Under the pieces are notes generated by a model, which was not told the DNA's origin, ran no database searches, and was given only the letters and a program-made list of their open reading frames with translations. The position numbers and the translations under genes are program-made. From an uncultured Verrucomicrobiota bacterium (lineage in GTDB: Bacteria > Verrucomicrobiota > Kiritimatiellia > RFP12 > UBA1067): DNA of 36,133 nucleotides. Shown one piece after another: positions 20,201 to 36,133 of this stretch. Position 1 is the stretch's first letter. Each line of letters starts with the position of its first letter. The DNA is taken from NCBI GenBank assembly GCA_946615875.1, contig CAMOIK010000002.1, positions 1-36,133 of the forward strand, written 5' to 3'.

Positions 20201-21399
20201 CGCGGCTCGCCGACCGCCACAGGGACCGTGACGTAGTCGATGATGCGCTCCATCGGCGCCCCGTTGCGGTAGTTGTAGTGCGGCCAGGCGCTGAGGACGA
20301 GATTGTTCGTCACGCCCTTCACCACGCCGAACACGGCGAAGTTGATGTCGTTCGTGGCTGTGACAGGGATGGTCGCCACCTGCACCTCGTTGGAGACTGG
20401 CTTGAGCGTGGACGTGTCCCAGCCGGTCTGCATCATGACCGGAGCGACGGTGACGCCCATGCTCTTCAAGGCCGCGGTGTTGGTCACCACGAGGCCGCTC
20501 TCGTCGGCGCTCCACACATACACGGGGACGCTCTTCGCGGGGCGGGACACGGCATACAGCGAAAGCGACGAATATTCGACCTCGCCCTCGTGGACGCTGC
20601 GCCACACGCCGGAATCGCTTCCAGAAGGAAACACCTCCCAGTTTGGGTCGAAGCCGATCGTCTGCACGTAGAAGCCAAGCGCCTCCGGCGAACCCGTGAG
20701 CTTGTCGCCGAGGCTCTGCCACTTCGACGTGCTCCAGCCGCTGGCGTCGGCGATATCGACGCAATCGTCGCCGTCCGGAGAGGAAATCACCCAGCGCACT
20801 TCGTCCGAGAGCCCGTCGGGCGCGAACGTGAATTTTTCGGATTCGATGCAGAGCTCCGCGCCGCAGCCCTCGAACTGGTCAGGGACGATCGCGTCGCCGC
20901 TGCGCGTCGCCAGGCGGATGGGCATCGCCAGATCGCCAGGCTCCGAATCATACTCGAACACGAGATCCGTGTATTCCTCGGTCTCGATGATGCCGCCGTC
21001 GATCAGCCTGGCCCACTTTGGCTCGCCGCTGCCGTCCGCGAACACTCCGAGGACGGGGCGATACTGCGCCCAGTCGAGCGCGACCTCCATGTAGTAGGCA
21101 TCTGTTCCAGGGGTGGAGCCGGGCTCGCAGCCGGCCTTGTAGGCCCGCTTCCAGCCGACATACTGGGCCGCACTGCCCACCATGGTGCGGTGGTTCCAGA
21201 GCCGGATGCGCACATACATCGCCTGTCCGACTCCGAACGGCGCATCGCTCGTCGTGTAGGCTTCGACCTGCGCGCCCGTCTTGTCGCATGGCACGATCGA
21301 CCATATGTCGCCCGTTGCCTTGGCGAAAGCGCTCAGGCCCGCACCGATGCAAAGTGCGGCTGCCGCTGCGGCTGCTGTCTTCTTCATGAGGTTTTTCAT
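8287..21399 (-). CDS. Giant secreted protein B (4370 aa): signal peptide, ~1300-aa beta-rich N-terminal region, dispersed thrombospondin type-3-like Ca-binding motifs, and a central LamG/concanavalin-like domain.
   Basis: One uninterrupted ORF. The start is trimmed from 21588 to MKNLMKKTAAAAAAALCIGAGLSAFA at 21399, with GGAAGGGG 7 nt upstream. The track's 63-codon extension is Arg/Pro-rich and overlaps the upstream gene. Domain evidence is given in the separate entries below. Confidence 0.85.
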   Translation of the reverse strand: MKNLMKKTAAAAAAALCIGAGLSAFAKATGDIWSIVPCDKTGAQVEAYTTSDAPFGVGQAMYVRIRLWNHRTMVGSAAQYVGWKRAYKAGCEPGSTPGTDAYYMEVALDWAQYRPVLGVFADGSGEPKWARLIDGGIIETEEYTDLVFEYDSEPGDLAMPIRLATRSGDAIVPDQFEGCGAELCIESEKFTFAPDGLSDEVRWVISSPDGDDCVDIADASGWSTSKWQSLGDKLTGSPEALGFYVQTIGFDPNWEVFPSGSDSGVWRSVHEGEVEYSSLSLYAVSRPAKSVPVYVWSADESGLVVTNTAALKSMGVTVAPVMMQTGWDTSTLKPVSNEVQVATIPVTATNDINFAVFGVVKGVTNNLVLSAWPHYNYRNGAPMERIIDYVTVPVAVGEPRETTLSVSGPATLTASSNRFECVACKLSLTPASKSAPNDISVTVTPSDGWQDCVFFSNKPTYDNSVPPAGGLDGLTSLEFTIKSGRTESDTFYIYGLGSVGGASVVTLTPSCTDPFVAGFSALPITIKTSIVAYPAWEEGELTPTKNLPCELEIGVGDAYADIQKGRTDGGYKLEVRLDAADAGTTITFEDLYLDADNILNVLDDATLAPPKVTFTSELQTNSAFRVTSPIGNKKTDWMPFSATVVPKDVSAEIVSGASDDGTVPAGGTMGINIHYPNFWNDSSYSTLYAYLVNTNDENLVSTMFTNSTPYVVTVCKDNAESAPTGYPVGSGKNDQLINIQALTAVNATFDVVLSTSPKWDATKVYGNAPSTELTIVVANASAEATAMWMYMDKTYEDPEDMDDDDDGIFSETVMYGTNRAFRVRVADADYDKSTNMVVKWTVRKQGATKDEMLNLDGAGKRVYRFTSSGDSKTVDDPDGWFSYTFGAATNYYVTAEVWDAHDYPGIDKEDDHPGSKIQKLVQVKGGSAITVLFNGGATGENAFDENVTTPQTVTVRLDDWTDEKDIVVELAVSRKSLTEEDPGKLPFGEATYSTADGTNYYRHTFRVGNYRDWELEVDLDSIDGVAKTASATKGFDITARVLTTDVLESRQMSANKYYLEGSLNKPVKIVNAAPEIDAALMTPFGATLTNVAKNVSIDWGYSDVNADMTATWKNTSYGTASDSASQEGTGILVVVRGVNVVTTNFFAGAKTTGTIVPSFVNGQAEAKLYFDFYDKDGGRSTSGEYYYPAQVTKILTTVANWPSGGNTYAKPLSMKYAMAAGVGYGHVFVSDATFVSSENFNLSWDCGTSSSTAMAYAFGYKADAVDDGQLDNKKDVWLTSEGAHAANATAPADPNEYYVYPDSLRDSFFYGWITASEPGGTEFAFSANPQMGSVVTSTKVALPTEQTETETGGSGKYAETYVEAVFAKEYNRHDNMGDINNDGIPDFYMFYPNWNGGPLKDTDDNAGELVAINSLNDDGDYYPAAADTTSTIVPGAVSGWATSGQAFTAVREIRGYHDGLNFGMFMARDEEYTAYRTGRATKYGWLSDLCMSEIEKKALLREVFERRDYLLKKLYTKGQLDNSWPICEEDELNLVTNLLATIHYRGAVNVTTSDGNNRLFYADRSYIDGNISSGIDRIVTNGDTGEDETVPTDAWLRTFTPIGATEPVVVTNYVNLVAYTNENDATDIHYLSPCDLYSFDQAEIGIWLDSENGNDLFDAQQKAAKDYITFTWRSHNANNVAWGFTVENRTDPTTDDTDGDGMPDGYEYYMWYAATVGTGTNQLVGSRFNLADLEDYSDAIAPKDIARIYNPNIAGSWTDTDTDNDGITDSEEFLIGTSPVHWDTDRDGLSDLYEVMYNSNPLAASKDNNGAANLDGDFMACWKADASDPLGAYTYIYTATNGTLWILDTAYTGYINTNKIAITVTGNGFEVKRFNGGFIVATEDTENYSKRYAKKRTIDFDPKAGIVTNTVTLYHHQVHNYFGFDPRTAWFRSDDGSVSKGKRWWSGGSLYTAGRAINTAPYTAIDEFLLLKFRYIVGLRNLADDQAKLAAKKTTIQAIISAGTTNPNKTFDEFSWGDSETKYKQSQHGADTDGDAVPDGWELYIGVNPNIDFNKRGDDEDKLYWNGSKIWPYSLGLYEGYSDGLSLVNEFAGTDSSAAYIDCPTIYAYHPSQTSADKPNPNYQWYNKFMPTDPRNKDTDGDGISDGTERSRSWSSDYTFNRWGQTIVTTVRHFAIYGDPSDGGGELCIPGGGMNPCTIDTDLDGLPDPWERQYAGLLFLNDDIVTTTTDEDGKNVDVFPSGTPLSGIYDDLRAAAQAHWGNYTNAEDKVYHILCGMDPTRADATSVPGIGFADNDWDGDGLQNWQEYMVQAMRHFRYDDPWTPLVGRDCPAFDEGTGTFVQGQWNGDKGFLRTSYIEPFTAKDYDTLVDAGYPNFAKIVKRYPNYLEMLGYFAAPPKAWDHAGVDLGNKYMLPPLRIRQRVMVANTPVQDRSLSGRLLWELRNGSTYATNIYNEDGNNYYVLYEGATATNWVVATPVMTLTTDAREVLTRQYRDESIDELEYVGTDPRLWDTDRDGMDDYYELFHGLNPILGSLGNRFGATANDVIARAHSTSTTLSAWCNAWVGWDNEDLPPNDPIRFPWMMGIAECDADGDGFRNYEEAILANVTSPDSAHTDPSPLWMTDSTVPSLDPIVGMDEIVSTNYLSYMGQPVYDIDENGEFVRAISGITTNLVTNATYQVAGSPSYTTLYYQNEILNPLNEQVFTSILGTEIAFTPYYSLREAWNCYNHDYIASFEQNEGYDTDNDWRTDSGEVKSLSRKNSDPLDFSDPARRQSVWFGGKDAPGAAISYKPITRNMNGTDLFRQFTVEAWIKPDESENGQDQYIVSRASRYGAWDLESHDEHGSSSNSVIRMCFALGIDASGHVFAETQNTTELSSRVTGDKVVDGEWVHIAATYDGKKLRLYRNGRFETSADTTLIPANGVTIIVQNPQGYADFPYDMYRIVRSVTIMGGRANGDGAFGHEQAAASADWSDIATDFYKGRVAEVRTWDGARSEADISGSYNKSFSVDDVKSLRLEVFGKWCEGARRNDNLGSDTEQLPPELIQYYNMSTLPNATDAQYVRTEPTGFAANVLGNVRNPDNPSADIGDSLKVGWWAAIQQSPVANTVYTSKHVVPWMENMVAHLPKLCGSVSDSVYWSENYAGYTPSTFQDSDSFAFPNTMNPYNSNVTTYEDEYLYNKYANMFWHDGGGSLSINNRTVVTNSVISAAFYRQFLFDYRLGFEGTSDLVPVGSAFAKRADSYWDGQGAETAWQETGADANANDLPDWWEEYARANYGAPADLAADTEIERNGALMSAYEAYIRDLAKGMLPAKEFLDEYVNREDFDKNGLPDWWTDIYGVKGAAADDDDNDGLSNFTEFLLSEYFKFEVAFSPVKAKSVSPYDSDYFFKIGQLYAGEVFTDHDFMEDVWEDAQGVPYVSRYAWDADLDKDEDGWSNYAERRYSQFTTSILAPVISHINSDDERKDMPIPTLKVTLRYNGDQPLVAPSEGDGEGGGESNEYNNQLNNAVGSIVVQTFTKQGLVVPDASYTLLPGVDALRYFDLGSVSGEIRQGSLAPGYIKAGDVELLVLQEANSRVYQWTIYGVRVRKGTYETYLADVNKYGRGNVWLLDYEAEWRTLKGISVIQSGNSSQATLALNGATIGTINVVTGEFTLDTSKLYGAEDESGNTIDIDVAQFRFHYIARIPTLQANKLELYLGEANKGYVKEGKNTIVAFYDLDGDGKYTYGEPMGSTVADVGWHQGVAEIELTDTSPIITRVDLLQASSDRKAMYGSSDGDEAALVAGELSGGKYERVRVVRTLVNGSGIDTLEMENRVIFDKVINLDQRSYLYEGDVLENGAFDIDWDYFQSEVMGSEKLVASGIDPTEVTYRIVLGNGSIALNTTNNLYTIATVRHFDSDDYRTVPVPQTPGSQQSAVFGSRPTFRWTMKIDNEAAGTQIDSNSYTAFKLQVRDGNTVVYDSGVRRAPARDLNGVYTFTPDVYAGDLLDPSKNYSWRVTMYNTKFRSDYWSANANNTFRMNALTNSMGTVKVCAKYFGPASVLNAGEVRIEAFDTPDFSGDPVARTYVRTKASVSATNAVHDVNATLIGLMPGKYYVRGYIDMNSYGTTRRKDAWESWGYVCKRDGAAKDIFTPSTIVIDDTMGLGDTFDLYIEDADTNGNCLPDAWEMVQNRGRLDNGTENLNDTLDSGVEINRTLSGNLQNQQNGSPAVGGLAAYVFSVINNAGIAALATDADTSGHSSYLLAVKDAMDGTVTTANATNVTFSAIGADEATVTLSARGSAKVLQTSGSGVAVSSRARGLYTSTGASDTPDLYGEVEYVTDLTGLTESSWKSAGVDEVPIYVKDDDTFETGEFVVPKPKDAGEKCFFRIRIKN
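12380..13090 (-). other. LamG (Laminin_G_3 / concanavalin A-like) domain inside giant protein B.
   Basis: Translation: SVWFGG...FRQFTVEAWIKPDESENGQDQYIVSRAS...GEWVHIAATYDGKKLRLYRNGRF...GRVAEVRTWDGARSEADI. The 'W.H.A.tYDG..l.lY.nG' and 'de.r.w' signatures are typical of this family. Confidence 0.75.
13140..16320 (-). repeat. Region of giant B with dispersed TSP3-like DxDxDGxxDxxE motifs (10 copies here; about 7 more at ~17240-17280, 11080-11640, 10220-10265 and 8905-8955).
   Basis: Examples: DTDGDGMPDGYE, DTDNDGITDSEE, DTDRDGLSDLYE, DTDGDAVPDGWE, DTDGDGISDGTE, DTDLDGLPDPWE, DWDGDGLQNWQE, DTDRDGMDDYYE, DADGDGFRNYEE, DTDNDWRTDSGE. These are protein-level motif repeats, not DNA tandem repeats. 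Confidence 0.7.
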
Positions 21400-21430
21400 T
21401 GTGTTTCCCCTTCCCTGTTTAGAAATGGTG

Positions 21431-22012
21431 CTACTTGCCGCCCAGGCTGCGCAGAGTCTGTTCGGCGGTGTTGTGGTTTTCCGCAAGCTTTTTGACGAGC
21501 GCGTCCAGCTCGGCCTTGAGCGCCGCCTTCCTGTCTTCGCCGGCCCCCTCGGCCTCGGCGTCGGCCAGCCGCTTCTTGGCCGCTTCAATTTCCGCCATTG
21601 TCGCCGCCTCCCTGGCGCGGTATTCGTCCAGCGTCTTGACGTGTTCGGGATGCTGCTCCTTCCAGAGTTCGCGGCGCAGGTTGTCGCGCATCCTGGCGCG
21701 GTCCAGTTCGAGATTCTTCTCCGCCTCGGCCACCGCGTCCTCCAGCTCCTTGATTATCTCCGGCTCCAGCTTCGCCTCCTTCGCCTCCTCCAGGTTCTGG
21801 CGGGCGCGGGCGATTTCGCCCATCGTCTTGCGCTGGGCGGCCTTTTCGTTTTCGAGCATCTTGAGATACTCCGGATTCTTCATGCGGTCGTAGATGGCCG
21901 TCTCCGGCTCGGCGGCGGATTCGCCGCGCCGCATCCAAAGGGCCGCCAGGATCGCGGCGGCGACGGCGGCCGCGGCGACGACGAGCAGAACTATCTTTGT
22001 TTTCCTTGACAT
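21431..22012 (-). CDS. Single-pass membrane protein with a long Glu/Lys/Ala-rich coiled coil (193 aa), between the two giant genes.
   Basis: The preferred start is MSRKTKIVLLVVAAAAVAAAILAALW at 22012, with AGGA about 10 nt upstream. An alternative ATG at 22054 would add 14 polar residues. The remainder is heptad-like (EEAKEAKLEPEIIKELEDAVAEAEKNLELDRARM...). I recognise no family. Confidence 0.7.
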   Translation of the reverse strand: MSRKTKIVLLVVAAAAVAAAILAALWMRRGESAAEPETAIYDRMKNPEYLKMLENEKAAQRKTMGEIARARQNLEEAKEAKLEPEIIKELEDAVAEAEKNLELDRARMRDNLRRELWKEQHPEHVKTLDEYRAREAATMAEIEAAKKRLADAEAEGAGEDRKAALKAELDALVKKLAENHNTAEQTLRSLGGK

Positions 22013-22055: not shown

Positions 22056-25000
22056 TCAATACAAGACCTCCTCGAACGTGTTCGTCTTGAACAGCAGCTG
22101 CGGGCCCGTTACGTCGGTGGCGTCGTTGATTGTCCAGTAGTAGAAGGGATGGTCGGAGGGATTCTCGATGAGCCAGTTGCGCCACTGCTCGTAGGCCGGC
22201 GACGACTCCGGCGCCTTGCAGTCGAGCACCTCCACCACCGCCTGGAAATCGTCGTCGAACGATCCCCTGTAGAACACGAACTTCCTCAGGGCGAGCCAGT
22301 AGGAGCGCGGATCGGTGCCCATCAGCGACATCAGCTTGCCCTGTATCTTGAACGTCGCGTTCGTCCAGGCGGATTTCATGCCGCCGTCCACGTAGCCCCA
22401 CGACGTGCCGTCGATGTCGGGCTGCATTCCCTGTAGGATGTACGGCGCCCACGCCTTCTTCCCGCCGACGGAGTAGGAGGAGTTTTCGTTGGCGTTGGTG
22501 ATGTACATCTTGACCGTCAGCAAGGTGTTTTCAAGCTCTTCGCCGGTCTTCTTGCGGATGCGGACGATCGGGCTGACATCCGATATTCCGCCGACGAGCC
22601 ACATGTTGGATGTCGTCGGGGGGATGTCCAGCCAATACATCTGCGTCAGCGTCAGCGGGCCGGTGTACGTCCCGCCGAGCGAATGGAACTCCGCCATGTA
22701 GAGTTCGTCGCTCTCGTCCCACGCGTCGCCGTAGGCGTTCTCGCTGTTGGCGAGCCAGTCCACGATCGCCTCGCGGTAGCGGTTGCCGGAGCCTATGAGG
22801 GCGGCGACGCGGTCGTCAAGCTCCGCGTGCGCGGTCACGGTCACGCTGCCCTCGACGTTGGTGCCCACGTTCACGCGCCACTCGTTGCCGGAGCCGCCGT
22901 AGATCTTGCTGGCGTATGTGGTGTTGGTCACGGACGAACCCGTCTCCGCCCACGTCACGCCGCGCACCACGTGCCACTTGGGGACGCGATAGACGATGTT
23001 GGTGCCCACGCTGCGCTGCACGTACATCGTGATGTCGTTCGCGGTCCACAACTCGCCCGCCTCGTCCGGCTCGCCCTCCGGGTCCCACTGTTCGATGCGC
23101 CCGCCCGTCAATGTCGAGAAGATCAGCCGGCTCATGCCGCCCGGGCTCGGCGGCGTCCCCTCGATCGTCTGGCCGATGTTGAGGCGGCCAGGCGTGCGGC
23201 CCACGCCGTTCGTCCAGCAGGAGAACGTGCCGTTCGTCCAGCAGGCGTAGGAGCCGCCGACGTTCGTCACCACGCTGAGGGAATTGGTGATTATGCCGTT
23301 GAGCGTGTTGTCGTCCGTGCCGATGTACAGGAACTCCGCGTCGCCGATGAGATGGTTGAGGTTCGTGGCCATGACCTCTGGATAGAACGCCTTGGCGTAT
23401 TCCGTGTCGAACTGCGCGAAGTAGTTGGTGCCTATCGCCACCACCTCGGACTCCAGAATGCCTTTCGGGCGGACGAGCTGCACCGCGATCGGATAGAACG
23501 GGGATATTTCGCCGCGCGCGTAAACGACGGTGGAGCCGTCGAACGTCCATACGCCGTCGAGCGTGCCGTCCGTGTATTTCAGCAAACCGCCCGCGCTATC
23601 CTGGGAATAAGGCGAACCGATCACGCGGAACGTCATGCCGTATTTGGTGTTCACGTAGCGGTCCTTGACGCCGGAAAGCCCGTTCGTGCCGAACACGGCG
23701 GCGACGTTGGTCACCACCTCTTCGCCACTCACCGCCAGCATCTGCAGCTGCCATCCCGTGAGGTCGGCGCCGGCCGGGGCGGCGATCTCCACGTACTGGC
23801 ATTTCGCGTCGGTGTTGTCGTAGCCGTCCATCGCGCCGAGTATGTTCACCTCGTTTATCCACGCCCAGTGCGGAGCCACGGTGTCCAGTATCGTATAGGC
23901 GGAGAAGTCGGCGCCGCTCTCCCCGCCCTTGTCCCTGTTGTAGTCGAGCGGCCTGTACCATTCTGGCGTGTTCCAGTCGGCGGAGGTCAGGAAGTTTGTG
24001 GAGGGAATGCTCTCGCCAGCGTCGTTGTACTGGTTGTAGCGCACTTCCAGCATATACTGGACCACAGTGCCGGGCGTGCGCGATTCCGGGACGATCGTGT
24101 CGGAACCCTTCTGGTAGCTGGAGCGGAACACGAAATTGGTCACTTCGCTATCCTCTGGAATCTCGGCGCGCATCAACTCGACCGAATGTGCGGCGGAGTT
24201 CGTCCGCCAGTTGTTGAAGCCCCACACGTCCTCGCCAGAATACCAGTGCAGTATCACCTTCGGAGGATTCGACTCGGAAGCGAAATCTATCTTGTCCGGC
24301 AACTGCGCCTTGTAGATTTCGCACTGCACGCCCCATCCTTCCTTGCACAGCGGCTGTTCGGCTTCGCTCGGCACGTTCGGCACCTCGTATATGCCGTTCA
24401 TGTCGCTGCGGAACGCACCCACCCCGCGGAAGCCCACGCGAGGGCGGATCGCCTCGGTCACCGAGACTTCGTCGAGCAGCACGCGCATCGGCGCTTCACC
24501 GTCCCACTTCTGGGAATCGCCGGCGGCGGAATCGTCGTATTCGGAAGCTTCCTCCACGCCTTCCACGCCGCGCACGACGAGACGGAAGGCCCTGTAGGTC
24601 TCGCTCGCCGAAGTAGTGTAGGAGAAGTTTTCGTAGAGGTTGGTGGTGACCGCGAAATCCTTAAGCCAGATCCACTTGCCCTTATCTTCGCCGTCCTGCG
24701 ACCCATATAGCGCGACGTAGGCCGGGCGCTCGTCGGCGGCGTTGTATTTGCGCGCCTTGAACGTGACGCCGCCCACGATGTTCGTCCCGAACGTCGGCGT
24801 CTGCACGAACGGCAGATGGCGGGTGTATTCGTCGTATTCGTCGCCGTCGATATCCGCCGAAACGGAATTGTTGAGCGCGAGGGCGAGTCCCGGCGCCAAA
24901 GGCTCGGAAATGTCGGAGAGCAGCATCCTCTTCTCGGAATCCTCCGGGTCGCCGAGCGTCCTCACGTTCCAGCCCCACCACGAGCGGTAGTCTATCTCCG

Positions 25001-28000
25001 GCTCGTCGCGCACGGTCACGCTGTCTATGTAGATGTCGCCGAACGCTTTCTCGTCCGTGGAATCCGCCACCTCGGCCACGAGAGCGTCATCGACGCTTAT
25101 CCTGACAAGGCCGTGGACGCCGTGATATCCGAAGTAGCAGCTGCGGACGCCGCTTTCGCCGTTCGTGAAGGTGAGCGTCTCCACCGTCTGCCAGTCGCCG
25201 GCCTTCGTCCAGGCGTAGGAATAGGCGTCGCCTTGCGTGATGTTCGTCGCATTCGTCAGCACCTGGACGCAAAGCCTGGCGTTCGCCTGCGCCCCGTGGA
25301 AGCGGAAGGATATCTGGCCGATGCCCTTCCCTGCGCGGTATCCGTCGGAATACTCCCAGCCATCCATCAGCGGCGAGACGATGGAGGCCACGCCGTCGGT
25401 GGACGTGCGGCGAGCGGAAAGCAGCACGGTGCGGCCCGGCGTGTCGCCGCCGTCGTCCCAGTCCTGCACCCATGCCGACGTGAACGTGAAGTTGGTGTAT
25501 GCGTAGCGCGAAACGTCGCGCGTCGGCTTGTTCGTGACCACCTCGCGGCCGAGCTCGCTCCAGTCGGCGCCGCGCCACTGCGTCAATTCGATGTTGTCGA
25601 TGACGACCTCGGCGGGATTGTCCTCCTCGATGACGCGAATCTGCACCGAGCAATCGTCCGTCTTGCGCAACTGGACCGCGTGGGGCTGCGTGAGGAAGGA
25701 AGCCACCTCCATCGTCGCCACGGGCTCGTCGTCGAAGGCCGTCGAACCAGCCTGTCCCAGGAACACGCCCAGCGTCTGCGCCGGCGCGATCGCCCGCAGG
25801 GCGTTTCGCTTGGACGGGCCGAGTATCTCCGCCATCATGCGCCCCGGCGCGATCGCCCACTCTTCATAGTCGCACGGCATGCCCGCATCGTCGGAGATCA
25901 GGCCGTTCAGCGCATAGTTCGGGCCGTATGCGGAGCTTGGGAACTTGGCCGTCGTGCTGCTGTATGCCGCCATGCCCGACAGACTTCCTCCATCCACGCC
26001 GCCCGAGGAGCCGCCGCTGCGCGTCAACGGATGCGTGTAGTAGCGCGGCCGGTAGAACAGCGCCGGGCAGTTCGCGGAGATGACGCCAGCCGTGCCTTTC
26101 GTCAACGCCGCGCCGCCCGCCGACGCGCCGGTGTCTGTGAATTCCACCCAGTTGCAGGTGACGTCGCTGCCGCTTTCCGCGTCGCCTCCGTAGGTCGCGG
26201 TTTTGCTCGTCTTGATCGCGCCGACGACCTTGACCGAGGTTTCGGTGAGATTCGTCACGGAGATGGCGAGCTTCGCCCACTCGGTGGCGCTGCCGGTCAG
26301 GCCCGAATTCGCGGAAATGCCGGACCAGTGCGCCGATCCCAGGAAGAAGCTCTTCATCTTGCTGCCGGACTTCGCCCACTTCCAGAGCTGCAGATAGCCC
26401 ACGTTCGCCTGTCTTTGGACATAGCGCAGCTCGTAGCATCCCTTGGTCGGACGGTAGTTGGCGACGAGCGACACCGAATACGCGCCTTCCAGCGTGCCGT
26501 TGGTGATTGCGGATACGCCAGAGACGAACGTGTAGTTCTTGAGCGCCGTCATGCCGTCCTCGTCGGAATAGCAGATGTCGTCCCACTCGATGGAGTTCGC
26601 CTGCCTGGCGGTGAAGGAGAGCGTGTCGATACCGCGAGGCTGCGTAGCCCCGCTCGTGACGTATTCGATAGAGCCAAGTCCGTCGCCGCGCATCTGCAGG
26701 GCGTATGCCTTGGACGCTGGATCGTCGTATTTCTCGTAGATGTATTTCGCGTAATTGGCCGTCCAGCCGTTGAGCGTGGTCGCCGTCTTGAAGAAATTGG
26801 TGCTCACTTCGGTCGTCGTGGAAAACGACTCCTTCCAGTATGCCGAGCCGGCGGGCATCGCATTCCATTCGGAGGCGAAGTCGGAGGCAAAAGTCTGTTT
26901 CGCGCCCGACGTGCCGATGGCGGGTCCGCCGTCGAGTTCGTTGAATGCGCCCACGAACGTGCCGCTCGCGCTGACGGCGTCGGTCCATTCGTTGAAGTTC
27001 TGGTAGTCGGCGTGGACGACCGTGATGGAGCGCCCCGACTCTTCCGCCTGGAAAAGCAGGTAGCCCGTCTTGGCGTCTATCGGTATCTCGCACCAGTCGT
27101 TTTCGCCGAACTCGTCCCTTTCGCCGTATGTCGCCGTCAGCACCCCCTGGCCGCCTTCACCGTCGGTGGCGACCGCCTCAACCGCGAAAAGGACGGTGTT
27201 CGTCGCCCACTGGCGCGATCCGTCCGTCTGGCGGTTCACGCCTTCCAGGCGGAACTTGACCGTGCCCGTCTCGTTCGTAGGCGTCTTCAGGTAGCAGCGC
27301 CACGTGGCCTCGTCGGCAAGCGTCGCGTAGTGCGTGTTCGTCGCGCCGTTGCCATCGACGATCGTCACGGCGAACTTCTCCCATGCGCTCGAACCGTCGC
27401 GCAGCCTCACGAACCAATCCGTGCCGAGGGTCTTGCCGAAGACGCTGGCGTTCCCACAGCGGTTCGTGACGGCTTTCACCTCTTCCGTGTAGCCGGGCGT
27501 GCCGATGTCCAGCCCGGAATAGTCGCAATAAACGTAGAACGGCGCCGCCTGCACCACCTCGGTCCAGAACTCTATGTCGCCGGAACGCCGGGGCACGTCG
27601 AGCGGAGCCGTCGAACGGAAGCCGGCGTTGCGCGCGAGCGGCACGCTCTTCCATTCGTTTTCCCCCGCCGGATCAAACGCGTGGGAAAGATTGCGCCAAC
27701 GGTAGAACATCGTCGCGGACACGACCATGTTGCTGCCGCCATCCGTGACCTGCTGCAGCGAATTCGTGTAGAACTCGCCCTCCATGCGGGCATAGATCGC
27801 CCTGCTCGCGACCGACGGAAACGCCGGCTCGAAGGCTCCGCTCCATCCAGTCGTCTGCCGACCGCCCTTCGCCGCGTCGAAATTCCCCAACGGCTTCAAA
27901 TCGACCCTCATCGGCGGCGGCGTCACCTGTATGTTGTCGATCAAAATGAAGCCGCCTTCGTCAAGCGCGAAACCGCCGCTGCCTTTCGTAGGCGGCGCGG

Positions 28001-31000
28001 ACGTCCGCCTGATCCTGAATCTGGCAGGCTCGCGTATTCCCAGAGCGTCCTTATCGACGATCACGCGGTAGAAGCTGTTGGTGCCGCCGCCGTTTTCGAT
28101 ATCGAGAGCCAGCTCTTCGGTATCTACCGTTTCGGCGGCGACGCCATCGACAATCTTTATCGCCGTCATCTTCACTCGCCGCCAGCAGCTGTCGTCAAGC
28201 GCGGCGAAGCGGTTTGTCGAAACGGCGCCCGTGTCGTTCCCTTCGGCGTCGATCACGGCTTCGTAGCCGTGCACGTTCTCGTCGTAGGGAGCCTGCCCGA
28301 TCTTGTTCTCCACGCAGACCTCTACGGCAAGGCAATAACTCTCGACACCCCCCGCGACATGGTTCGTCCAGCCGTTGACGGCGTCGAAATACAACGACCC
28401 GATGCCGTCGCGGTAGCACGCGGAGTAGATGGCCGCGTCCTCCAGGTTGCGCATCACCAGGTGCGCGCTCTCGTCGATCGAACCGGTCGCGCCGTCTTCG
28501 GCGGAGACCGCTTTCGCCGTGGCGGCCTGCGGCAATCCGTTCTTCGCCGGATTTTCCAGCCTGACTCCGGAGACGTACTGGTAGATGTTGCCGATGCGGA
28601 CATTGTCCAGATACCATATTTCCCTGGAACCGCAGAGTTCCGCCACCGGGGACGCGCTCTCGAGCACGTTCGTGGTTCCCGCGAAGAGATGCAGGAACAC
28701 GTTGGCCACGCTCACCTCGTTCTCGTGCACCCAGTAGGTGGCGTCGTCGCCGGAGACGTTCTCCTTGGAACGATAGTAGGCCTGCCCCTCAACAGGCTGG
28801 ATTTCGTTCGCGTCGTCGTTCGCCAGCAGGATTCGCCCGAGGCGCGTGACGGACGCGGCGTCGCCCATGCTGTAAACGGGAAGGAACTGGTTGACCGTAA
28901 TCGTCACGGTCTGCTCCAGCCCAGTCCAGGTGCGGGTGCCGTGATCGCCGTCGCCGGATTCATCTACGGTGAACGTCAGCAGATACGTGCCGGCGGGCAG
29001 CGCCTTCGCATCGACGCCCATGTCAATTCCATCAAGAGTGCGGAAGCGCCAGACGACGTTCGTGGAGCCGTATGCCGCCTCGCCGACCGTCACCTCTATG
29101 CTTTCGCCTGTTTTGATGGTTGTCGGCGACGCGGACGATTCGGCCAGCCAGCGGTTCAGGAACTTCGCCTTGCGGGTGATGTATAGTCCGCTCGCCACGT
29201 TCGCGCCAGCGGCCTGCGCATATTCCGCCTTCGCCCAGGCCGCGCTCACACCGCCAATGCGGATTCGCCATTCGTCGAACGCCCCCACGAACTTCACCTG
29301 CGAAGAAGAAGTGTTTCCGCCGATGCTGATTGCCATGGCGCTGTCCGTCACCGCCGTTTTCAACGTCTGGGTCCCCTTGAAGGCGTCGCCATCGCCGTAG
29401 ATCGTCGCGCTGGCGCCGTCAAAAGCGACCAGCACGTGGATGTAGCCGCGCGTGCGCGTGTCGATGGAGGATATCTGCTGGCCAACGGCGCCGCTGCCGC
29501 CGCCGAACAGGGCGATGTTTCTGGGGGCGGTCACGCCCCAGATCGCGATTTCCCACCCGCCGTCGGTCGCATTCATGGCGGACTTGCGGGAAATGATGCC
29601 GTTCGAGCCGTTTATGGCCGCCACGTCCATCCATCCGGAAACGGTGAATTTTGATCCAAGCGTCAAGGCCGAAGTGTTGGCGAGCTCGAACCTGTTTATC
29701 TGGCCAGATGCCGTAGCGTTCACGCGACCGCACCCGAACACGCCGTTCGTCGAAACCATGCGCGCGCCATTCGCGGCGTTGTTGGAGACGGGCGTGGCGT
29801 CGTGTCCATTGCCGGTCGCATCGGGCGAAACGGCGGTGGCGGCGGCATCGGCGGCGATTTCCTCCGCGAAATGCCAGACGCCGACATACTCGCTCCAGAC
29901 GGAGTCTGCGGGGTTGTCGGGGATCGGGACGGGGATTTCTTCTCCGCTTTCCTCGTCGAGCGTCACGATTTCGCCCCAGCTCATGACGACCTGCGCGCCG
30001 GCCTTGTATTCCGGCATCTTCACCCAGACGAGCGACTCGCCGGAAGGATCCCATGTATCGATTTCATATGCGAGCGGCGTATCCGGATCTTCCGGCAAGG
30101 TGAAGCGGATATCGCTGCGGTCGCCACGCGTGTTGCGGTATATCCCTGGCTGGCCGGCCTCGTCGATCCTGACGAGCATCGGGAAATTGGTCAGCGTCTC
30201 GCCGGGATCTTCCGTCACGGTATATACCGTATGATAGCCGAGGTAATCCGGGAAGCCGAGGTCTTCGTAGTTCCAGACGCTGAACGACGCCACGGCCGCG
30301 GCCGACACGTAGCCCGCGCCATAGGGCGTCCATTCGTCGCCCAGCGAATAGTTTTCGTTCTCGTAAACGATGATCCGCAGCTCGTAGTCGCCCGTGCCGA
30401 GAGGCGTGCCGGCCTCCCACGCGAGCCACGCGGAACTGCCTTTGGGACGGATTTCGCAGCCATACCACGAAGGATCGAGGGTCGGGGTCGAAGAAACCAC
30501 GGGCACGTTCGGGACTTCCCCCTGCTGCCATCCGCTAATGCGCAGGCCGGATACCTGCAGCTGCTGCCGCGTCACGCGCCAGCTACAGGTCACGGAATCC
30601 GAGGTGCCGTCGCTCCACACGATGCCGGTTTTCGGCGTCACAGTGAACTCGTACTCGCCCACGGCATACGCTTTCAGAGTGCCCGTGACATCCAGGAAAT
30701 TCTCGTCGCAGTCGGCGTATGGACAGTATTCCTTGACGCCGTCAAACGGGATCGCCCCCAAATCTGCGGCAGGCTTCTCGAACACGCCATCATGGACCGC
30801 CTCTATGCGGATGATGACAACGCCGCTGCCGCCGGCCCCGCCGCATTCCAGATAGCGGCCGCCACCACCGCCGGAACCTGTGCCCGCCTTGCCTTGCTCT
30901 GCGGATTTAGGTTCCGCCTTCGTCCCGCCGGCGCCATTGCCGCCGATTATTTTGCCGTCGCTTCCCGCGCCTCCCTGTCCGCCGGTTTGCTCGGACGTGG

Positions 31001-31772
31001 AATCTGCCCTTGTGCCGCCGCCGCCGCCAGCCGCGTAGAACAACTCCGGCCCGGTTATGTCGCTTGGCCTGGGTGCGCCGCCGGCGCCGCCCTTGTCTGC
31101 CGAGGAAGCGCCGCCGGGGCCGCCCGCGCCGCCGCCACCGCCGCCGGTCTGGTTGGCGGTGCACGCGCCGCCGGCATTGCCTTGCCCTTCGACGCCTTCG
31201 CCAGGATCGAGGACATATTTCGCCGAATAGCGCGAACCGCCGCCGCCGGAGCCGCCATTCTGGCCCGCATACTGGGTCTGCGACGCCGGAGCGCCGCCGC
31301 CGCCGCCGCCATGCGCAAAGAGATTGGTGGTCACGCCATCGCACAGGATGTACGACGGTTTGCCGCTTTCACCGAAAGTTGTTACCGTTTTGTCCGCCGG
31401 CACGTCGCCGCCGGCGCCGGCCACGACGAGATACGACCCGGCCTTGAAATAGAAGATGTCGTCTATCATGCCGCCGGCGCCGCCGCCGCCGGCGCCGCCA
31501 CGCGTCGAGGACGCCGCACCAGGGGTTGCGCCAGCGCCGCCGCCGCCAACCGCGAGGACCCGCGCCTTTACGGCGCCATTGACCTGAAACACGCCATTCG
31601 TATCAAACTTGTAGTACGTCTTGCCGTTCGCATCGCCGACGACAGCGCCTTCCACGGAGACGACGCTCGTGCTTGCGAGCGAATTTGTGGTGCCGCGAGC
31701 ATGAAACGCCAGCAGCGCGGCAAATGCCGCGATGCACAGCGCTTGCGCCCTCCTACGCGCGCAAATTCTCAT
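22056..31772 (-). CDS. Giant secreted protein A (3238 aa): signal peptide, glycine-rich domain, DUF2341, LamG, a long series of beta-sandwich-like modules, a lamin-tail-like domain, and a ~500-aa C-terminal region.
   Basis: One uninterrupted ORF. The start is trimmed from 31886 to MRICARRRAQALCIAAFAALLAFHARG at 31772, with a strong RBS GGAAGGAGGTG about 7 nt upstream. Several modules end with a similar strand: FILIDNIQVT (~27911-27950), VVIDNIELTQW (~25575-25610), IYIDSVTVRDE (~25003-25040), VLLDEVSVTE (~24445-24485). Confidence 0.85.
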   Translation of the reverse strand: MRICARRRAQALCIAAFAALLAFHARGTTNSLASTSVVSVEGAVVGDANGKTYYKFDTNGVFQVNGAVKARVLAVGGGGAGATPGAASSTRGGAGGGGAGGMIDDIFYFKAGSYLVVAGAGGDVPADKTVTTFGESGKPSYILCDGVTTNLFAHGGGGGGAPASQTQYAGQNGGSGGGGSRYSAKYVLDPGEGVEGQGNAGGACTANQTGGGGGGAGGPGGASSADKGGAGGAPRPSDITGPELFYAAGGGGGTRADSTSEQTGGQGGAGSDGKIIGGNGAGGTKAEPKSAEQGKAGTGSGGGGGRYLECGGAGGSGVVIIRIEAVHDGVFEKPAADLGAIPFDGVKEYCPYADCDENFLDVTGTLKAYAVGEYEFTVTPKTGIVWSDGTSDSVTCSWRVTRQQLQVSGLRISGWQQGEVPNVPVVSSTPTLDPSWYGCEIRPKGSSAWLAWEAGTPLGTGDYELRIIVYENENYSLGDEWTPYGAGYVSAAAVASFSVWNYEDLGFPDYLGYHTVYTVTEDPGETLTNFPMLVRIDEAGQPGIYRNTRGDRSDIRFTLPEDPDTPLAYEIDTWDPSGESLVWVKMPEYKAGAQVVMSWGEIVTLDEESGEEIPVPIPDNPADSVWSEYVGVWHFAEEIAADAAATAVSPDATGNGHDATPVSNNAANGARMVSTNGVFGCGRVNATASGQINRFELANTSALTLGSKFTVSGWMDVAAINGSNGIISRKSAMNATDGGWEIAIWGVTAPRNIALFGGGSGAVGQQISSIDTRTRGYIHVLVAFDGASATIYGDGDAFKGTQTLKTAVTDSAMAISIGGNTSSSQVKFVGAFDEWRIRIGGVSAAWAKAEYAQAAGANVASGLYITRKAKFLNRWLAESSASPTTIKTGESIEVTVGEAAYGSTNVVWRFRTLDGIDMGVDAKALPAGTYLLTFTVDESGDGDHGTRTWTGLEQTVTITVNQFLPVYSMGDAASVTRLGRILLANDDANEIQPVEGQAYYRSKENVSGDDATYWVHENEVSVANVFLHLFAGTTNVLESASPVAELCGSREIWYLDNVRIGNIYQYVSGVRLENPAKNGLPQAATAKAVSAEDGATGSIDESAHLVMRNLEDAAIYSACYRDGIGSLYFDAVNGWTNHVAGGVESYCLAVEVCVENKIGQAPYDENVHGYEAVIDAEGNDTGAVSTNRFAALDDSCWRRVKMTAIKIVDGVAAETVDTEELALDIENGGGTNSFYRVIVDKDALGIREPARFRIRRTSAPPTKGSGGFALDEGGFILIDNIQVTPPPMRVDLKPLGNFDAAKGGRQTTGWSGAFEPAFPSVASRAIYARMEGEFYTNSLQQVTDGGSNMVVSATMFYRWRNLSHAFDPAGENEWKSVPLARNAGFRSTAPLDVPRRSGDIEFWTEVVQAAPFYVYCDYSGLDIGTPGYTEEVKAVTNRCGNASVFGKTLGTDWFVRLRDGSSAWEKFAVTIVDGNGATNTHYATLADEATWRCYLKTPTNETGTVKFRLEGVNRQTDGSRQWATNTVLFAVEAVATDGEGGQGVLTATYGERDEFGENDWCEIPIDAKTGYLLFQAEESGRSITVVHADYQNFNEWTDAVSASGTFVGAFNELDGGPAIGTSGAKQTFASDFASEWNAMPAGSAYWKESFSTTTEVSTNFFKTATTLNGWTANYAKYIYEKYDDPASKAYALQMRGDGLGSIEYVTSGATQPRGIDTLSFTARQANSIEWDDICYSDEDGMTALKNYTFVSGVSAITNGTLEGAYSVSLVANYRPTKGCYELRYVQRQANVGYLQLWKWAKSGSKMKSFFLGSAHWSGISANSGLTGSATEWAKLAISVTNLTETSVKVVGAIKTSKTATYGGDAESGSDVTCNWVEFTDTGASAGGAALTKGTAGVISANCPALFYRPRYYTHPLTRSGGSSGGVDGGSLSGMAAYSSTTAKFPSSAYGPNYALNGLISDDAGMPCDYEEWAIAPGRMMAEILGPSKRNALRAIAPAQTLGVFLGQAGSTAFDDEPVATMEVASFLTQPHAVQLRKTDDCSVQIRVIEEDNPAEVVIDNIELTQWRGADWSELGREVVTNKPTRDVSRYAYTNFTFTSAWVQDWDDGGDTPGRTVLLSARRTSTDGVASIVSPLMDGWEYSDGYRAGKGIGQISFRFHGAQANARLCVQVLTNATNITQGDAYSYAWTKAGDWQTVETLTFTNGESGVRSCYFGYHGVHGLVRISVDDALVAEVADSTDEKAFGDIYIDSVTVRDEPEIDYRSWWGWNVRTLGDPEDSEKRMLLSDISEPLAPGLALALNNSVSADIDGDEYDEYTRHLPFVQTPTFGTNIVGGVTFKARKYNAADERPAYVALYGSQDGEDKGKWIWLKDFAVTTNLYENFSYTTSASETYRAFRLVVRGVEGVEEASEYDDSAAGDSQKWDGEAPMRVLLDEVSVTEAIRPRVGFRGVGAFRSDMNGIYEVPNVPSEAEQPLCKEGWGVQCEIYKAQLPDKIDFASESNPPKVILHWYSGEDVWGFNNWRTNSAAHSVELMRAEIPEDSEVTNFVFRSSYQKGSDTIVPESRTPGTVVQYMLEVRYNQYNDAGESIPSTNFLTSADWNTPEWYRPLDYNRDKGGESGADFSAYTILDTVAPHWAWINEVNILGAMDGYDNTDAKCQYVEIAAPAGADLTGWQLQMLAVSGEEVVTNVAAVFGTNGLSGVKDRYVNTKYGMTFRVIGSPYSQDSAGGLLKYTDGTLDGVWTFDGSTVVYARGEISPFYPIAVQLVRPKGILESEVVAIGTNYFAQFDTEYAKAFYPEVMATNLNHLIGDAEFLYIGTDDNTLNGIITNSLSVVTNVGGSYACWTNGTFSCWTNGVGRTPGRLNIGQTIEGTPPSPGGMSRLIFSTLTGGRIEQWDPEGEPDEAGELWTANDITMYVQRSVGTNIVYRVPKWHVVRGVTWAETGSSVTNTTYASKIYGGSGNEWRVNVGTNVEGSVTVTAHAELDDRVAALIGSGNRYREAIVDWLANSENAYGDAWDESDELYMAEFHSLGGTYTGPLTLTQMYWLDIPPTTSNMWLVGGISDVSPIVRIRKKTGEELENTLLTVKMYITNANENSSYSVGGKKAWAPYILQGMQPDIDGTSWGYVDGGMKSAWTNATFKIQGKLMSLMGTDPRSYWLALRKFVFYRGSFDDDFQAVVEVLDCKAPESSPAYEQWRNWLIENPSDHPFYYWTINDATDVTGPQLLFKTNTFEEVLY
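23560..23875 (-). other. Lamin-tail-domain (LTD)-like segment in giant A (residues ~2635-2740).
   Basis: WAWINEVNILGAMDGYDNTDAKCQYVEIAAPAGADLTGWQLQML resembles the bacterial LTD signature INEv....d....eyvEl.n.....dLsGW.L. Confidence 0.55.
29208..29900 (-). other. LamG (Laminin_G_3-like) domain in giant A, immediately after DUF2341 (residues ~625-855).
   Basis: VGVWHFAEE...DATGNGHDATPV...KFTVSGWMDV...GGWEIAIWG...YIHVLVAFDGASATIYGDGDAF...FDEWRIRIGGVSAAWAKAEY. DUF2341 followed by LamG is a known recurrent pairing. Confidence 0.7.
29973..30245 (-). other. DUF2341-like domain in giant A (residues ~510-600).
   Basis: TNFPMLVRIDEAGQPGIYRNTRGDRSDIRFTLPEDPDTPLAYEIDTWDPSGESLVWVKMPEY matches the characteristic 'FP.lv.l...DiRF....g..L.yEi..wd.....vWVk.p' pattern. 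Confidence 0.7.
30798..31565 (-). other. Glycine-rich domain at the N-terminus of giant A (residues ~70-325).
   Basis: It begins RVLAVGGGGAGATPG...GGAGGGGAGGMI. It contains repeated GGGGG blocks separated by short beta-like segments. It ends GGAGGSGVVIIRIE. This is the same overall pattern as the 'glycine-rich domain-containing protein' family seen in phage and bacterial fibre-like proteins (recalled, not searched). Confidence 0.55.
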
Positions 31773-31809
31773 GTCCCACACCTCCTTCCGTACCAAAACT
31801 TCCTTTTTG

Positions 31810-31825
31810 TGCCGCATTTGCGGCA
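31810..31825. promoter_or_regulatory. Perfect 7+2+7 inverted repeat TGCCGCA-TT-TGCGGCA in the leader of giant gene A.
   Basis: Read directly from the sequence. It lies 38-53 nt upstream of the ATG at 31772. It could be a protein operator or a short RNA hairpin. Confidence 0.35.
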
Positions 31826-31868
31826 TTTTACACCTCATATAGGCATCTACGCATTCCGCACCGAATAG

Positions 31869-31897
31869 AACAAAACCCGCCTCCACATTCGCGGGCT
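31869..31897 (-). terminator. Intrinsic-terminator-like hairpin: either the MFS gene terminator or a leader attenuator of giant gene A.
   Basis: The minus-strand RNA reads AGCCCGC-GAAUGUGGAG-GCGGGUU followed by UUGUUCUAUU. That is 5 G:C pairs plus a G:U and an A:U, a 10-nt loop and a U-rich tail. It lies 75-100 nt downstream of the MFS stop codon. Confidence 0.45.
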
Positions 31898-33558: not shown

Positions 33559-35424
33559 CTATGCCGTATGTGCGGCGGAAACGGCTCCGCGCTTTATGAT
33601 TACGGCCAGAACCGCTATGTCGGCAGGGTTCACGCCTGGGATTCTCGCCGCCTGAAGCAATGTTTCCGGGCGATGCTCGCGGAGTTTCTGGCGGCTTTCA
33701 AAACGCAGCGCCGTGCACGCGTCATAATCCAGCCAATGCGGGATGGCGACGGATTCGCATTCGCGAAGCCGATCCGCGGCCTTCTTTTCCTGTTCGATAT
33801 AGGGGGCGTAATGGCGCATTATCGCAAGCTCCCGTTCTATGTCTTCGGCCGAAAACCAGCGCGACACGGGCGGCGGAAGGTCGGAACGCCCCGTAGCCAT
33901 TGCCGCCTCCATGTAGTCTAAAACTCGTTTTGTCGCGGCAATCTGGTCGCGACCGACAATGCCAATTCGTTCAGCGGCGGACACCAGGCGGAACCTGGCA
34001 TTGTCCTGGCGCAGCAACAGGCGGCGCTCGGCACGGCTCGTAAACATCCGATATGGTTCGTCCGTGCCTTTCGTGACAAGATCGTCGATCATCACGCCAA
34101 TGTAGGCGTCTTGCCGGATCAAGACCAGTCCATCTTCGCCGCGAGACTTGAAAGCGGCGTTTACGCCCGCCACAAAACCCTGCGCGGCCGCCTCTTCATA
34201 GCCGGTCGTGCCGTTTATCTGCCCGGCGAAAAACAATCCGGGCACGCGCTTTGCCTCAAGAGTGTGGCGCAGTTCGCGCGCGTCTATCGCGTCGTATTCA
34301 ATCGCGTATGCATACGCCAGGAAGCGGGCGCGTTCCAGTCCCGGAACGGAATGGACCATCCGCACCTGCACCTCCTCAGGGAGGGAGCAGCTGAGTCCGT
34401 TCGGATATATGACGGAGCCGGACGAATCTTCCGGCTCGAGTACCACATGGTGGGACTCTGCATTTGCAAACCTTACTATCTTGTCCTCGATCGAAGGGCA
34501 GTATCTGACGCCCGTTCCCTCGATTGCGCCGCCGTAGAGCGCCGATCTTTTGAGGTTTTCCCGGATTATTTCGTGTGTTTCCTGGGTGGTGTGGGTCATA
34601 TAGCACGGCATTTCAGGCAGTTGGCGGCGCTGTTCCACGTGGAACACTTGCCCAAACCGAGCGCCGTCCTCCGCCGCGCCATCCAAGCCGCGATGTTCCA
34701 CGTGGAACACGGGGCGGGGGATTTCGCCGTCTTCGCGGACGCAAGACCCAAAATCGCACGACTCGGCGGCGAGGCGAGGCGGGGTTCCCGTCTTGAGACG
34801 AAACATCCGAAACCCCAACCGCTCAAGGGATTCAGAAAGAAGATCGGCCGCCGGTCGTCCGTCGCCGCCGCCGGACGACCCGTCCTTGCCAATCCATATA
34901 CGTCCGCGCAAACTGGTCCCGGCGGTCAAGACCACCGCGTCGGCCCTGACGACCGCTCCGCTCCGGACGCGAACACCCTCACACATCGGCGTCTGGTCAC
35001 GCTCCCGCCGCCCCGAATCGTCGCCGACAAGAACCTCGACGGCGACATCCTCAAGAACGGAAAGATTCGGCGCATTCTCTATCACGCCCTGCATCCGCTC
35101 CGAATATTCCTTTTTGGCGCACTGCACGCGGGTCGCCCGGACCGCGGGGCCGCGGCTCATGTTCAGCGTCTTGGCGTGCATGGCGGTCTCATCGGCGTTC
35201 AATCCCATCTCGCCGCCCAAGGCGTCAAGCTCATAGACAAGATGGCTCTTGGCGAGTCCTCCGATCGCGGGGTTGCAGGGCATCTTGGCAATATCCGCTT
35301 TTTTCGCGGTGACGAGGAGCGTGGCGGCGCCCATGCGGGCGCTGGCCAAGGCGGCCTCCGCGCCTGCATGGCCGCCGCCGACCACTACTACGTCGTATTT
35401 CCATTGATTTTCCATGACATCCAT
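33559..35424 (-). CDS. mnmG: tRNA uridine 5-carboxymethylaminomethyl modification enzyme MnmG (GidA).
   Basis: 621 aa. Motifs [94 protein letters not shown]. An alternative start lies 3 codons downstream (MENQ...). Confidence 0.95.
34631..34646. promoter_or_regulatory. parS: parS-type ParB/Spo0J binding site, perfect 16-bp palindrome TGTTCCACGTGGAACA (copy 1).
   Basis: Read directly from the sequence. It matches 15/16 positions of the Bacillus-type parS TGTTCCACGTGAAACA and fits the consensus tGTTNCACGTGAAACa as a symmetric TGTTCCAC half-site dimer. It lies inside mnmG and encodes VFHVEQ. Confidence 0.7.
34694..34709. promoter_or_regulatory. parS: parS-type ParB/Spo0J binding site, perfect 16-bp palindrome TGTTCCACGTGGAACA (copy 2).
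   Basis: An identical 17-nt string TGTTCCACGTGGAACAC lies exactly 63 bp (21 codons) from copy 1. It encodes VFHVEH. Confidence 0.7.
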
Positions 35425-35712
35425 AGTCTAGCACACCCGCGGCGGAATTGTGAACAATTATTTATATTTTGTTATGCGGCCAATTCGCATACAGTGGCGT
35501 GCGAAAAACCCAATAAAAACAGGGCTGAACAAATTTCGCCGGATTTTGTCAAGGGATAAAGGGCGATTTCGTGTAAACAATTATCAAGAAGTTATCTACA
35601 AAACCGGCACAGGCTTTGAGAAAGGCTTTCCACGAGCCGTCTATCGCTCCAAAGTCCGTCGGGGAAACGTCTGCAAGAGCTGGGGGAGGCCCCGTGGGTG
35701 GTTCTCAAAACC

Positions 35713-35815
35713 CCATGGATGGCGTTCACGCGATCCCATAAGATGGACAACCGAGATTCCATAGATTGAAAACGAGGGGGTGCCATAGATGGTCGCCGAG
35801 GGGTGCCATGGAAGG
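35713..35815. repeat. Array of five phased inverted-repeat motifs CCAT-N2-3-ATGG (iteron/operator-like) in the non-coding region upstream of mnmG.
   Basis: CCATGGATGG (35713), CCATAAGATGG (35736), CCATAGATTG (35759), CCATAGATGG (35783), CCATGGAAGG (35806). Spacings are 23, 23, 24 and 23 bp. Units 4 and 5 share a longer repeat, GAGGGGTGCCATNGANGGTC. A more degenerate unit may start at about 35692. Confidence 0.55.
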
Positions 35816-36133
35816 TCTCTAGAGATTTGCGGGAACGAAGGACGTGCACGGTTATTGGTCAAGGCAAAACCTGGCGGTTGCACGGCATCAGCGTCCACTT
35901 TCGTAAAAATTTCGCTGTCGCCGTGAACAGTGGCTGGAGTTTACCCATTTTTTGAGCGTGGAAATGCGTCGCACCCTAGTAAATAAAGGCTAAAGTGCGT
36001 TTCGGGATGTGGTTTTCGGCGTTTCGCGTCCGAAACGGCTATCCGTCGTCGGTGTCAAGGAGTTCGGCGAAGCCCGGCAGAAGCTGGATCGCCGGGATCT
36101 CTGGAGCTTTGGTGCTGGTCTAAAATGATTTTG

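Follow-up and report, generated by a model that had tools for sequence, protein, structure and literature searches.

The closest described counterpart of the element treated here is the chromosomal parS site of the ParABS partition system, for which the Bacillus subtilis consensus is TGTTNCACGTGAAACA. The gene mnmG (gidA) classically adjoins partition genes and parS, as in the canonical mnmG(gidA)-rsmG(gidB)-parA-parB origin cluster, and a functional parS within the coding sequence of B. subtilis spo0J (parB) was reportedly described by Lin and Grossman in 1998. In Pseudomonas aeruginosa, gidAB-parAB form one operon (PMC13438810) and nine of the ten parS sites lie in coding sequence (PMC4368675), so a location inside a gene is nothing exceptional. 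Both intragenic parS and parS near gidA-gidB-parA-parB are already known. Here, we describe two copies of a parS-like palindrome inside mnmG on a 36,133-nt stretch of DNA (hereafter, the window) from an uncultured Verrucomicrobiota bacterium (contig CAMOIK010000002.1, assembly GCA_946615875.1). Judging from the sequence comparisons below, we put at roughly 80% the probability that these are real chromosomal parS sites, housed in a tolerant loop of MnmG by the origin region, where they would load ParB.

The sites resemble chromosomal parS of ParABS systems in their identical 16-bp palindrome, in having several copies close together, and in the dnaA gene adjoining them in relatives. They differ in that the whole local cluster sits in one loop of one conserved enzyme gene, a placement kept over Kiritimatiellae and two Verrucomicrobiota lineages, read in three frames and accompanied by a loop of up to seven times the normal length. 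In contrast to the mnmG-rsmG-parA-parB cluster, the sites lie inside the gene and not beside it, and neither parA nor parB was found within 10 kb of mnmG in the window or its relatives. The spo0J site of B. subtilis likewise places a centromere site inside an open reading frame (ORF), where DNA and protein constraints overlap; however, it stands alone there, in a structured region of a partition gene, whereas here an array occupies an expandable, apparently disordered loop of an unrelated enzyme. The literature searched, in which subscription papers were partly covered, contained no description of a one-loop centromere array, of three-frame reading or of linked loop expansion, which is not proof that none exists.

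Both palindromes have the sequence TGTTCCACGTGGAACA. As originally predicted, the two are identical and occur nowhere else in the window, a result that held with up to three mismatches allowed. The chance expectation for matches to TGTTCCACGTGGAACA was 0.07, and two or more were reached in none of 100 shuffles. Scanning the window with the degenerate consensus TGTTNCACGTGNAACA, two mismatches allowed, returned the same two sites and nothing more, and both match the parS consensus tGTTNCACGTGNAACa perfectly. The description of the palindrome as a symmetric version of parS was borne out as well: the 16-mer is identical to P. aeruginosa parS2 and parS3, which are perfect palindromes and the sites bound best by the ParB of that species (PMC4368675). 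The copies start 63 nt apart, with 47 nt between them. Both stand in frame within mnmG, whose coding strand reads (G)TG TTC CAC GTG GAA CA(N), and encode the V-F-H-V-E peptide foreseen for them (Table 1).

Table 1. Features of the mnmG region, in window coordinates
Feature	Position	Strand	Description
mnmG (gidA) coding sequence, 621 aa	33559-35424	-	Pfam GIDA PF01134 6.5e-142; SAM_GIDA_C PF13932 3.2e-20
Putative parS, copy A	34694-34709	.	Perfect palindrome TGTTCCACGTGGAACA; minus-strand (G)TG TTC CAC GTG GAA CA(T) = V239 F H V E H244
Putative parS, copy B	34631-34646	.	Perfect palindrome TGTTCCACGTGGAACA; read V260 F H V E Q265
Two diverged 63-nt units	34624-34686 and 34687-34749 (span 34624-34749)	.	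Putative parS heads each unit
Hypervariable loop, MnmG insertion domain 2, residues 241-272	34609-34704	-	19 residues longer than Escherichia coli
Non-coding stretch upstream of mnmG, to contig end (709 nt)	35425-36133	.	dnaA neighbourhood in relatives

In the DNA that could be read, the sites were rare and clustered, with two in the 36 kb of the window, both in mnmG. Counting sites with at most two mismatches, 16 distinct Kiritimatiellae-type loci (305 kb) carried 35 sites within mnmG and three outside it, all three in a single locus (L008, taken up below). Fifteen further loci (116 kb) added 33 sites within mnmG and none outside, bringing the two sets to 68 against three. Among Firmicutes and other loci, mnmG held sites in none of 71. 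Peptides encoded by the site were found in the same loop in all of the 120 closest MnmG homologues, which belong to Kiritimatiellae, with one to four in each and at least two in 117. The same loop carries two to three sites in 118 of 120 homologues from Coraliomargarita/Puniceicoccaceae (Verrucomicrobiota, Opitutae) and one or two in 119 of 120 from Verrucomicrobiae/Limisphaerales. The mnmG gene of C. algicola, whose genome is complete (CP138858.1), holds three perfect sites, with none elsewhere in 22 kb. Across Kiritimatiellae and the two Verrucomicrobiota lineages, the arrangement is either old or repeatedly reinvented.

When metagenome contigs were scanned for pairs of perfect sites 12-42 nt apart, at least 120 loci were recovered. 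Among the 120 matches listed, the pair lay inside mnmG in 17, 15 of those in this same loop, and within 300 nt of either end of mnmG in 14, a likeness to the canonical origin cluster; mnmG stood elsewhere on the locus in 7, parB was on the locus in 26, and 56 had neither mnmG nor parB. Coraliomargarita/Puniceicoccaceae and Verrucomicrobiae/Limisphaerales are two of the more distant lineages with a pair in mnmG. Several of the listed pairs outside mnmG were located at parA, either directly preceding its reading frame or within its 5' end. Six MnmG proteins of unrelated lineages (P0140, P0150, P0178, P0194, P0230 and P0268; 42-49% identity) carry single parS-encoded peptides at the extreme N-terminus of the gene call or at residues 460-541, and parS therefore sporadically touches mnmG elsewhere too.

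The palindrome is conserved to the base. The 16-mer stays exact across MnmG lineages that share only 44-48% protein identity; all 16 positions are fixed, the central CACGTG included, and the arms show no covariation, which argues for recognition by a DNA-binding protein rather than for an RNA hairpin. Imperfect copies, with one or two mismatches, are few and confined to the loop, and two of them are synonymous (CAC to CAT in L082 and GTG to GTA in L088). One may still suppose that the palindrome serves as an operator for some other DNA-binding protein, or as an mRNA hairpin, controlling mnmG and, in many relatives, the downstream dnaA, with no ParB centromere involved. In four relatives (L085, L087, L088 and L212), dnaA starts on the same strand 121-320 nt after mnmG, so anything bound in mnmG could affect read-through; moreover, no parB was seen nearby, and in P. 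aeruginosa, ParB at parS is itself able to repress genes nearby (PMC7022226). We nevertheless consider such a regulatory element decidedly unlikely. Compensatory changes are lacking at all 16 invariant positions, the central hexamer among them, the sequence exactly equals the pan-bacterial parS, paired 16-mers elsewhere adjoin parB or the 5' end of parA among the matches listed, and in the window itself dnaA is not downstream of mnmG.

A ParB centromere, by contrast with a protein motif, would be conserved whatever peptide it happens to encode. Were the FHVE(H/Q) peptide selected at the protein level, for instance as a His/Glu metal-binding or interaction motif, the palindrome would be a by-product. 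Consistent with this, the F-H-V-E of the first site does not vary among Kiritimatiellae (F240, H241, V242 and E243 across 52 homologues), FHVE is the sole frame in the two Verrucomicrobiota lineages, and it is kept in L082 and L088 despite the one synonymous DNA change in each. Among the 120 closest homologues, however, the same 16-mer is read in three frames, as [V/L/M]FHVE[H/Q] (246 times), CSTWN (35) and VPRGT (5), even inside one gene: L002 combines three FHVE sites with one CSTWN, and L005 and L006 have FHVE and VPRGT in the same gene, 28 nt apart. L004 and L007 retain the ancestral PLFSL and have CSTWN sites only. The flanking residues track the codon fragments TG and CA left at the edges of the palindrome, with V, L or M (NTG codons) before FHVE in 714 of 725 cases and H or Q (CAN codons) after it in 719 of 725; similarly, CSTWN is followed only by T, K, N or S (codons starting with A), and VPRGT is preceded by I or S (codons ending in T).

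The choice of codons points the same way. In the DNA of 11 relatives' genes, whose GC content at third codon positions spans 0.33-0.70, exact parS codons were used in 24 of 25 site peptides, one spelling out of at least 32 synonymous ones. Given each gene's own codon usage, the per-site chance of parS codons was 0.0002-0.023, and the summed log10 P of -54.8 is an upper bound on the significance, because the sites are not fully independent. The site is thus conserved as DNA regardless of its coding role, and the loop around it is predicted to be disordered and otherwise unconserved. These results support selection on the DNA palindrome, not on the peptide, as inferred from the sequences compared, and bring the protein-level explanation, which we find very improbable, close to refutation. 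The original prediction would have fallen if orthologues carried the peptide without the palindromes; close and distant orthologues alike keep the palindromes in their DNA.

Copy A sits over the ancestral P-x-F motif (PVFSF in E. coli), and copy B lies in a portion of the loop with no E. coli counterpart. The prediction of an insertion of about 21 residues that creates the second site therefore needs amending. A HMMER alignment to E. coli MnmG (PDB 3CES and 9HIP) recovered the extra sequence, with copy B inside it, but its size is 19 residues rather than 21, and copy A was written onto the ancestral motif, not inserted. Between the 63-nt units headed by the two sites, a stretch of 24 nt repeats with 92% identity, and a further 10 nt match at the same 63-nt offset. 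The units still agree at 22 of the 47 positions that lie beyond the 16-mers (P about 0.003, by comparison with random pairs taken from the gene), and probably descend from an old tandem duplication, which would have produced the second site. Regular site arrays with periods of 30 to 51 nt occur in other lineages, and the shortest start-to-start spacing is 28 nt. We also considered helical phasing of the spacing, and found none that is general in Kiritimatiellae (R = 0.26); the high R in the other two sets reflects closely related sequences.

No flanking sequence of the sites is conserved between lineages. It is hardly credible that a short mobile or repetitive element has left copies of itself in a tolerant loop, and that the sites have no role of their own: the loop does take other internal repeats (four 64-nt LTQRRRxAE units in L082) and the two window copies share some flanking identity, but no copy occurs beyond mnmG in about 420 kb of related DNA, L008 excepted, and neither the unconserved flanks nor the exactness of the 16-mer across such distant MnmG lineages (44-48% identity) fits an element of this kind.

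The gene that hosts the sites appears to encode an intact enzyme, as judged from its sequence and a predicted structure. Both MnmG domains score far above their cut-offs (473.6 bits against 22.1 for PF01134 and 72.1 against 27.1 for PF13932), and the protein matches solved MnmG structures at 1e-149. Cysteines C50 (MPCNPAIGG) and C309 (RYCPSIEDK) align to the catalytic C47 and C277 of E. coli MnmG, whose roles have been described (PMC12397908), and are invariant among 88 MnmG sequences. An AlphaFold model built from these 88 sequences, representing three lineages, reached a predicted local distance difference test score (pLDDT) of 86.6 and a predicted template modelling score of 0.90; an earlier model from 52 close homologues (pLDDT 66) was discarded. 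Foldseek superposed the model on the GidA/MnmG structures 2ZXI, 9HIP and 3CP8 with TM scores of 0.83-0.85. The nearest homologues (54-76% identity) are from metagenome-assembled genomes (MAGs) of gut and rumen Kiritimatiellae, which belong to the Planctomycetes-Verrucomicrobia-Chlamydiae (PVC) group. With its catalytic cysteines conserved and its model superposing on solved structures, MnmG gives the impression of an intact enzyme that tolerates the loop as a disordered insertion on its surface.

This loop belongs to insertion domain 2, which in E. coli MnmG comprises residues 161-174 and 193-348 (PMC12397908), and its position corresponds approximately to E. coli residues 227-241. Measured between KTGTPPR and YCPSIEDK, the window protein has 89-90 residues where ordinary bacterial MnmG has about 70; representatives of the Kiritimatiellae clade have 75-479, with up to five sites. 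The loop is predicted to be disordered and exposed on the surface: the pLDDT of the 10-residue blocks covering residues 241-270 is 55, 45 and 59, compared with 88 and 93 in the flanking blocks, and residues 249-260, the spacer between the sites, form the only internal stretch of the model below 50. Apart from the sites, no position in the loop has a majority residue in an alignment of 52 homologues. Other repeats are also found there. In L082 (10715-11174; the same in L009, L083 and L084), the mnmG loop contains four 64-nt direct repeats encoding LTQRRRxAE-like peptides, and similar LLTQRRKDAEDAE peptides are present in the corresponding loops of P0043 and P0055, which belong to another lineage. 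The LTQRRRxAE-coding repeat was rejected as a dispersed element, since among the loci examined its core 16-mer is confined to the mnmG loop of one lineage.

The original prediction held that a segregation signal shapes, and apparently expands, a conserved enzyme. The 16-mer read in three frames, its clustering in mnmG within 305 kb of related DNA, and a loop exceeding the 70-residue norm support the conclusion that such a signal has shaped and lengthened MnmG. We envisage that ParB dimers would bind the 16-mers, close with cytidine triphosphate (CTP) into sliding clamps, and build the partition complex on which ParA and SMC act. The sites would be housed in the disordered loop of insertion domain 2, which would accept almost any sequence and length. 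Selection would keep the DNA palindrome, and the enzyme would carry whichever peptide the local frame yields, be it FHVE, CSTWN or VPRGT. New copies may be gained by small tandem duplications within the loop and lost by point mutation, so that copy number (1-5), spacing (28-400 nt) and loop length (75-479 aa) could drift with the 16-mer remaining exact. ParB binding at the window sites and the duplication mechanism are both what we infer from these patterns. Since mnmG stays beside dnaA-dnaN in the clade, the centromere would thereby be held near the replication origin.

In seven related contexts (L082, L085, L086, L087, L088, L210/L211 and L212/L213), dnaA lies within 10 kb of mnmG, mostly in the order mnmG-dnaA-dnaN. 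The dnaA-dnaN pair directly follows mnmG in L085, L087, L088 and L212/L213; in L086, mnmG and dnaA are divergent across a 600-nt spacer, and in L210/L211 and L082, dnaA is 6-10 kb away. Pairs of TTATCAACA stand between mnmG and dnaA in several relatives. Convergent TTATCAACA / TGTTGATAA pairs were observed straight after the mnmG stop codon and upstream of dnaA in L003 (11937-11959), L005 (1893-1915) and L085 (11958-11980), and these motifs are probably the DnaA boxes of the clade. By comparison with these relatives, the contig in question would itself be origin-proximal, as had been proposed. On this reading, the source genome would encode parA and parB as well. ParABS homologues have been reported in the verrucomicrobium Akkermansia muciniphila (PMC10197239).

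Several observations weigh against a parS array near the origin. The window has no dnaA, and upstream of mnmG it has a single DnaA-box-like 9-mer (TTATCTACA at 35592-35600); across the window, a scan for TTATCCACA with at most one mismatch gave 4 matches, compared with 2.4 expected, and the clade box TTATCAACA is absent from the tail upstream of mnmG. No ParB-like ORF was detected in the window or in any Kiritimatiellae-type flank when six-frame ORFs were searched with a Spo0J query, also with filters off, and no called neighbour gene had a parB Pfam match; the same search detected ParB/Noc in many Firmicutes loci, with E-values down to 5e-78. In the distant Kiritimatiellae MAG locus L008 (46% identity), mnmG (791-2887) has about 90 extra loop residues and no parS in the loop, and the three perfect sites of this locus come downstream of the gene, at a distance of 66 nt (2953) and of about 2 kb (4883 and 4947). 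A loop can therefore expand without housing sites. In both Verrucomicrobiota lineages FHVE is the only frame, so the three-frame argument does not apply to them and the flank and codon arguments alone carry over. Finally, in C. algicola (locus L209, 2,854,351-2,876,327 of CP138858.1), mnmG stands mid-record, 2.86 Mb into 5.38 Mb, and dnaA is absent from the 10 kb around it; either this record starts away from the origin, or dnaA and the centromere are widely separated. At this locus, mnmE is upstream of mnmG.

If the sites are parS, they identify a likely centromere for Kiritimatiellae, which have been little studied, and for two Verrucomicrobiota lineages. They would also present an unusually clean case of one stretch of bases serving both a protein and a non-coding signal, in which the signal prevails: the same exact 16 bases would force three unrelated peptides and an up to sevenfold loop on an enzyme. 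ParB loading, transcription and translation would then pass over the same DNA, making the locus a natural system in which to study all three. In metagenome bins of these groups, paired 16-mers in mnmG could mark the dnaA region, and site-driven loops may explain the odd, long MnmG gene calls of 650-1,100 aa. A bolder and rather doubtful extension is that in Kiritimatiellota and much of Verrucomicrobiota the main, perhaps the only, centromere resides in one ORF, with the MnmG loop as a dedicated and evolvable cassette that is transcribed and translated, and with ParB loading coupled to the expression of mnmG and of the immediately downstream dnaA. Such coupling, if true, would connect segregation, replication initiation and translational fidelity.

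A different gene may hold a second centromere array within coding sequence. On metagenome contig Ga0224524_1001045 (L153, 38% GC), a 554-aa Wzy_C (O-antigen-ligase) ORF at 217-1878 on the minus strand contains six perfect parS 16-mers.

In the window, which is an entire contig, mnmG is followed by a major facilitator superfamily (MFS) transporter gene and then by two giant genes, and no Rfam family was found along its length. An independent assembly of the same organism (L081, 1-765) breaks 56 nt beyond the window end, so both assemblies break 709-765 nt upstream of mnmG, which hints at a repeat or coverage anomaly at a place where dnaA or an origin-like spacer is found in relatives. The giant ORFs, at 8287-21588 (4,433 aa) and 22056-31886 (3,276 aa), occupy most of the contig. 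GC skew flips sign between them although both are on the minus strand, and we gave the skew profile, dominated by these two repetitive genes, no weight as origin evidence. The L081 copy of the giant genes has Pfam matches to Gly_rich_2 and Laminin_G_3, and several relatives likewise have giant Laminin_G_3/DUF2341 genes close to mnmG.

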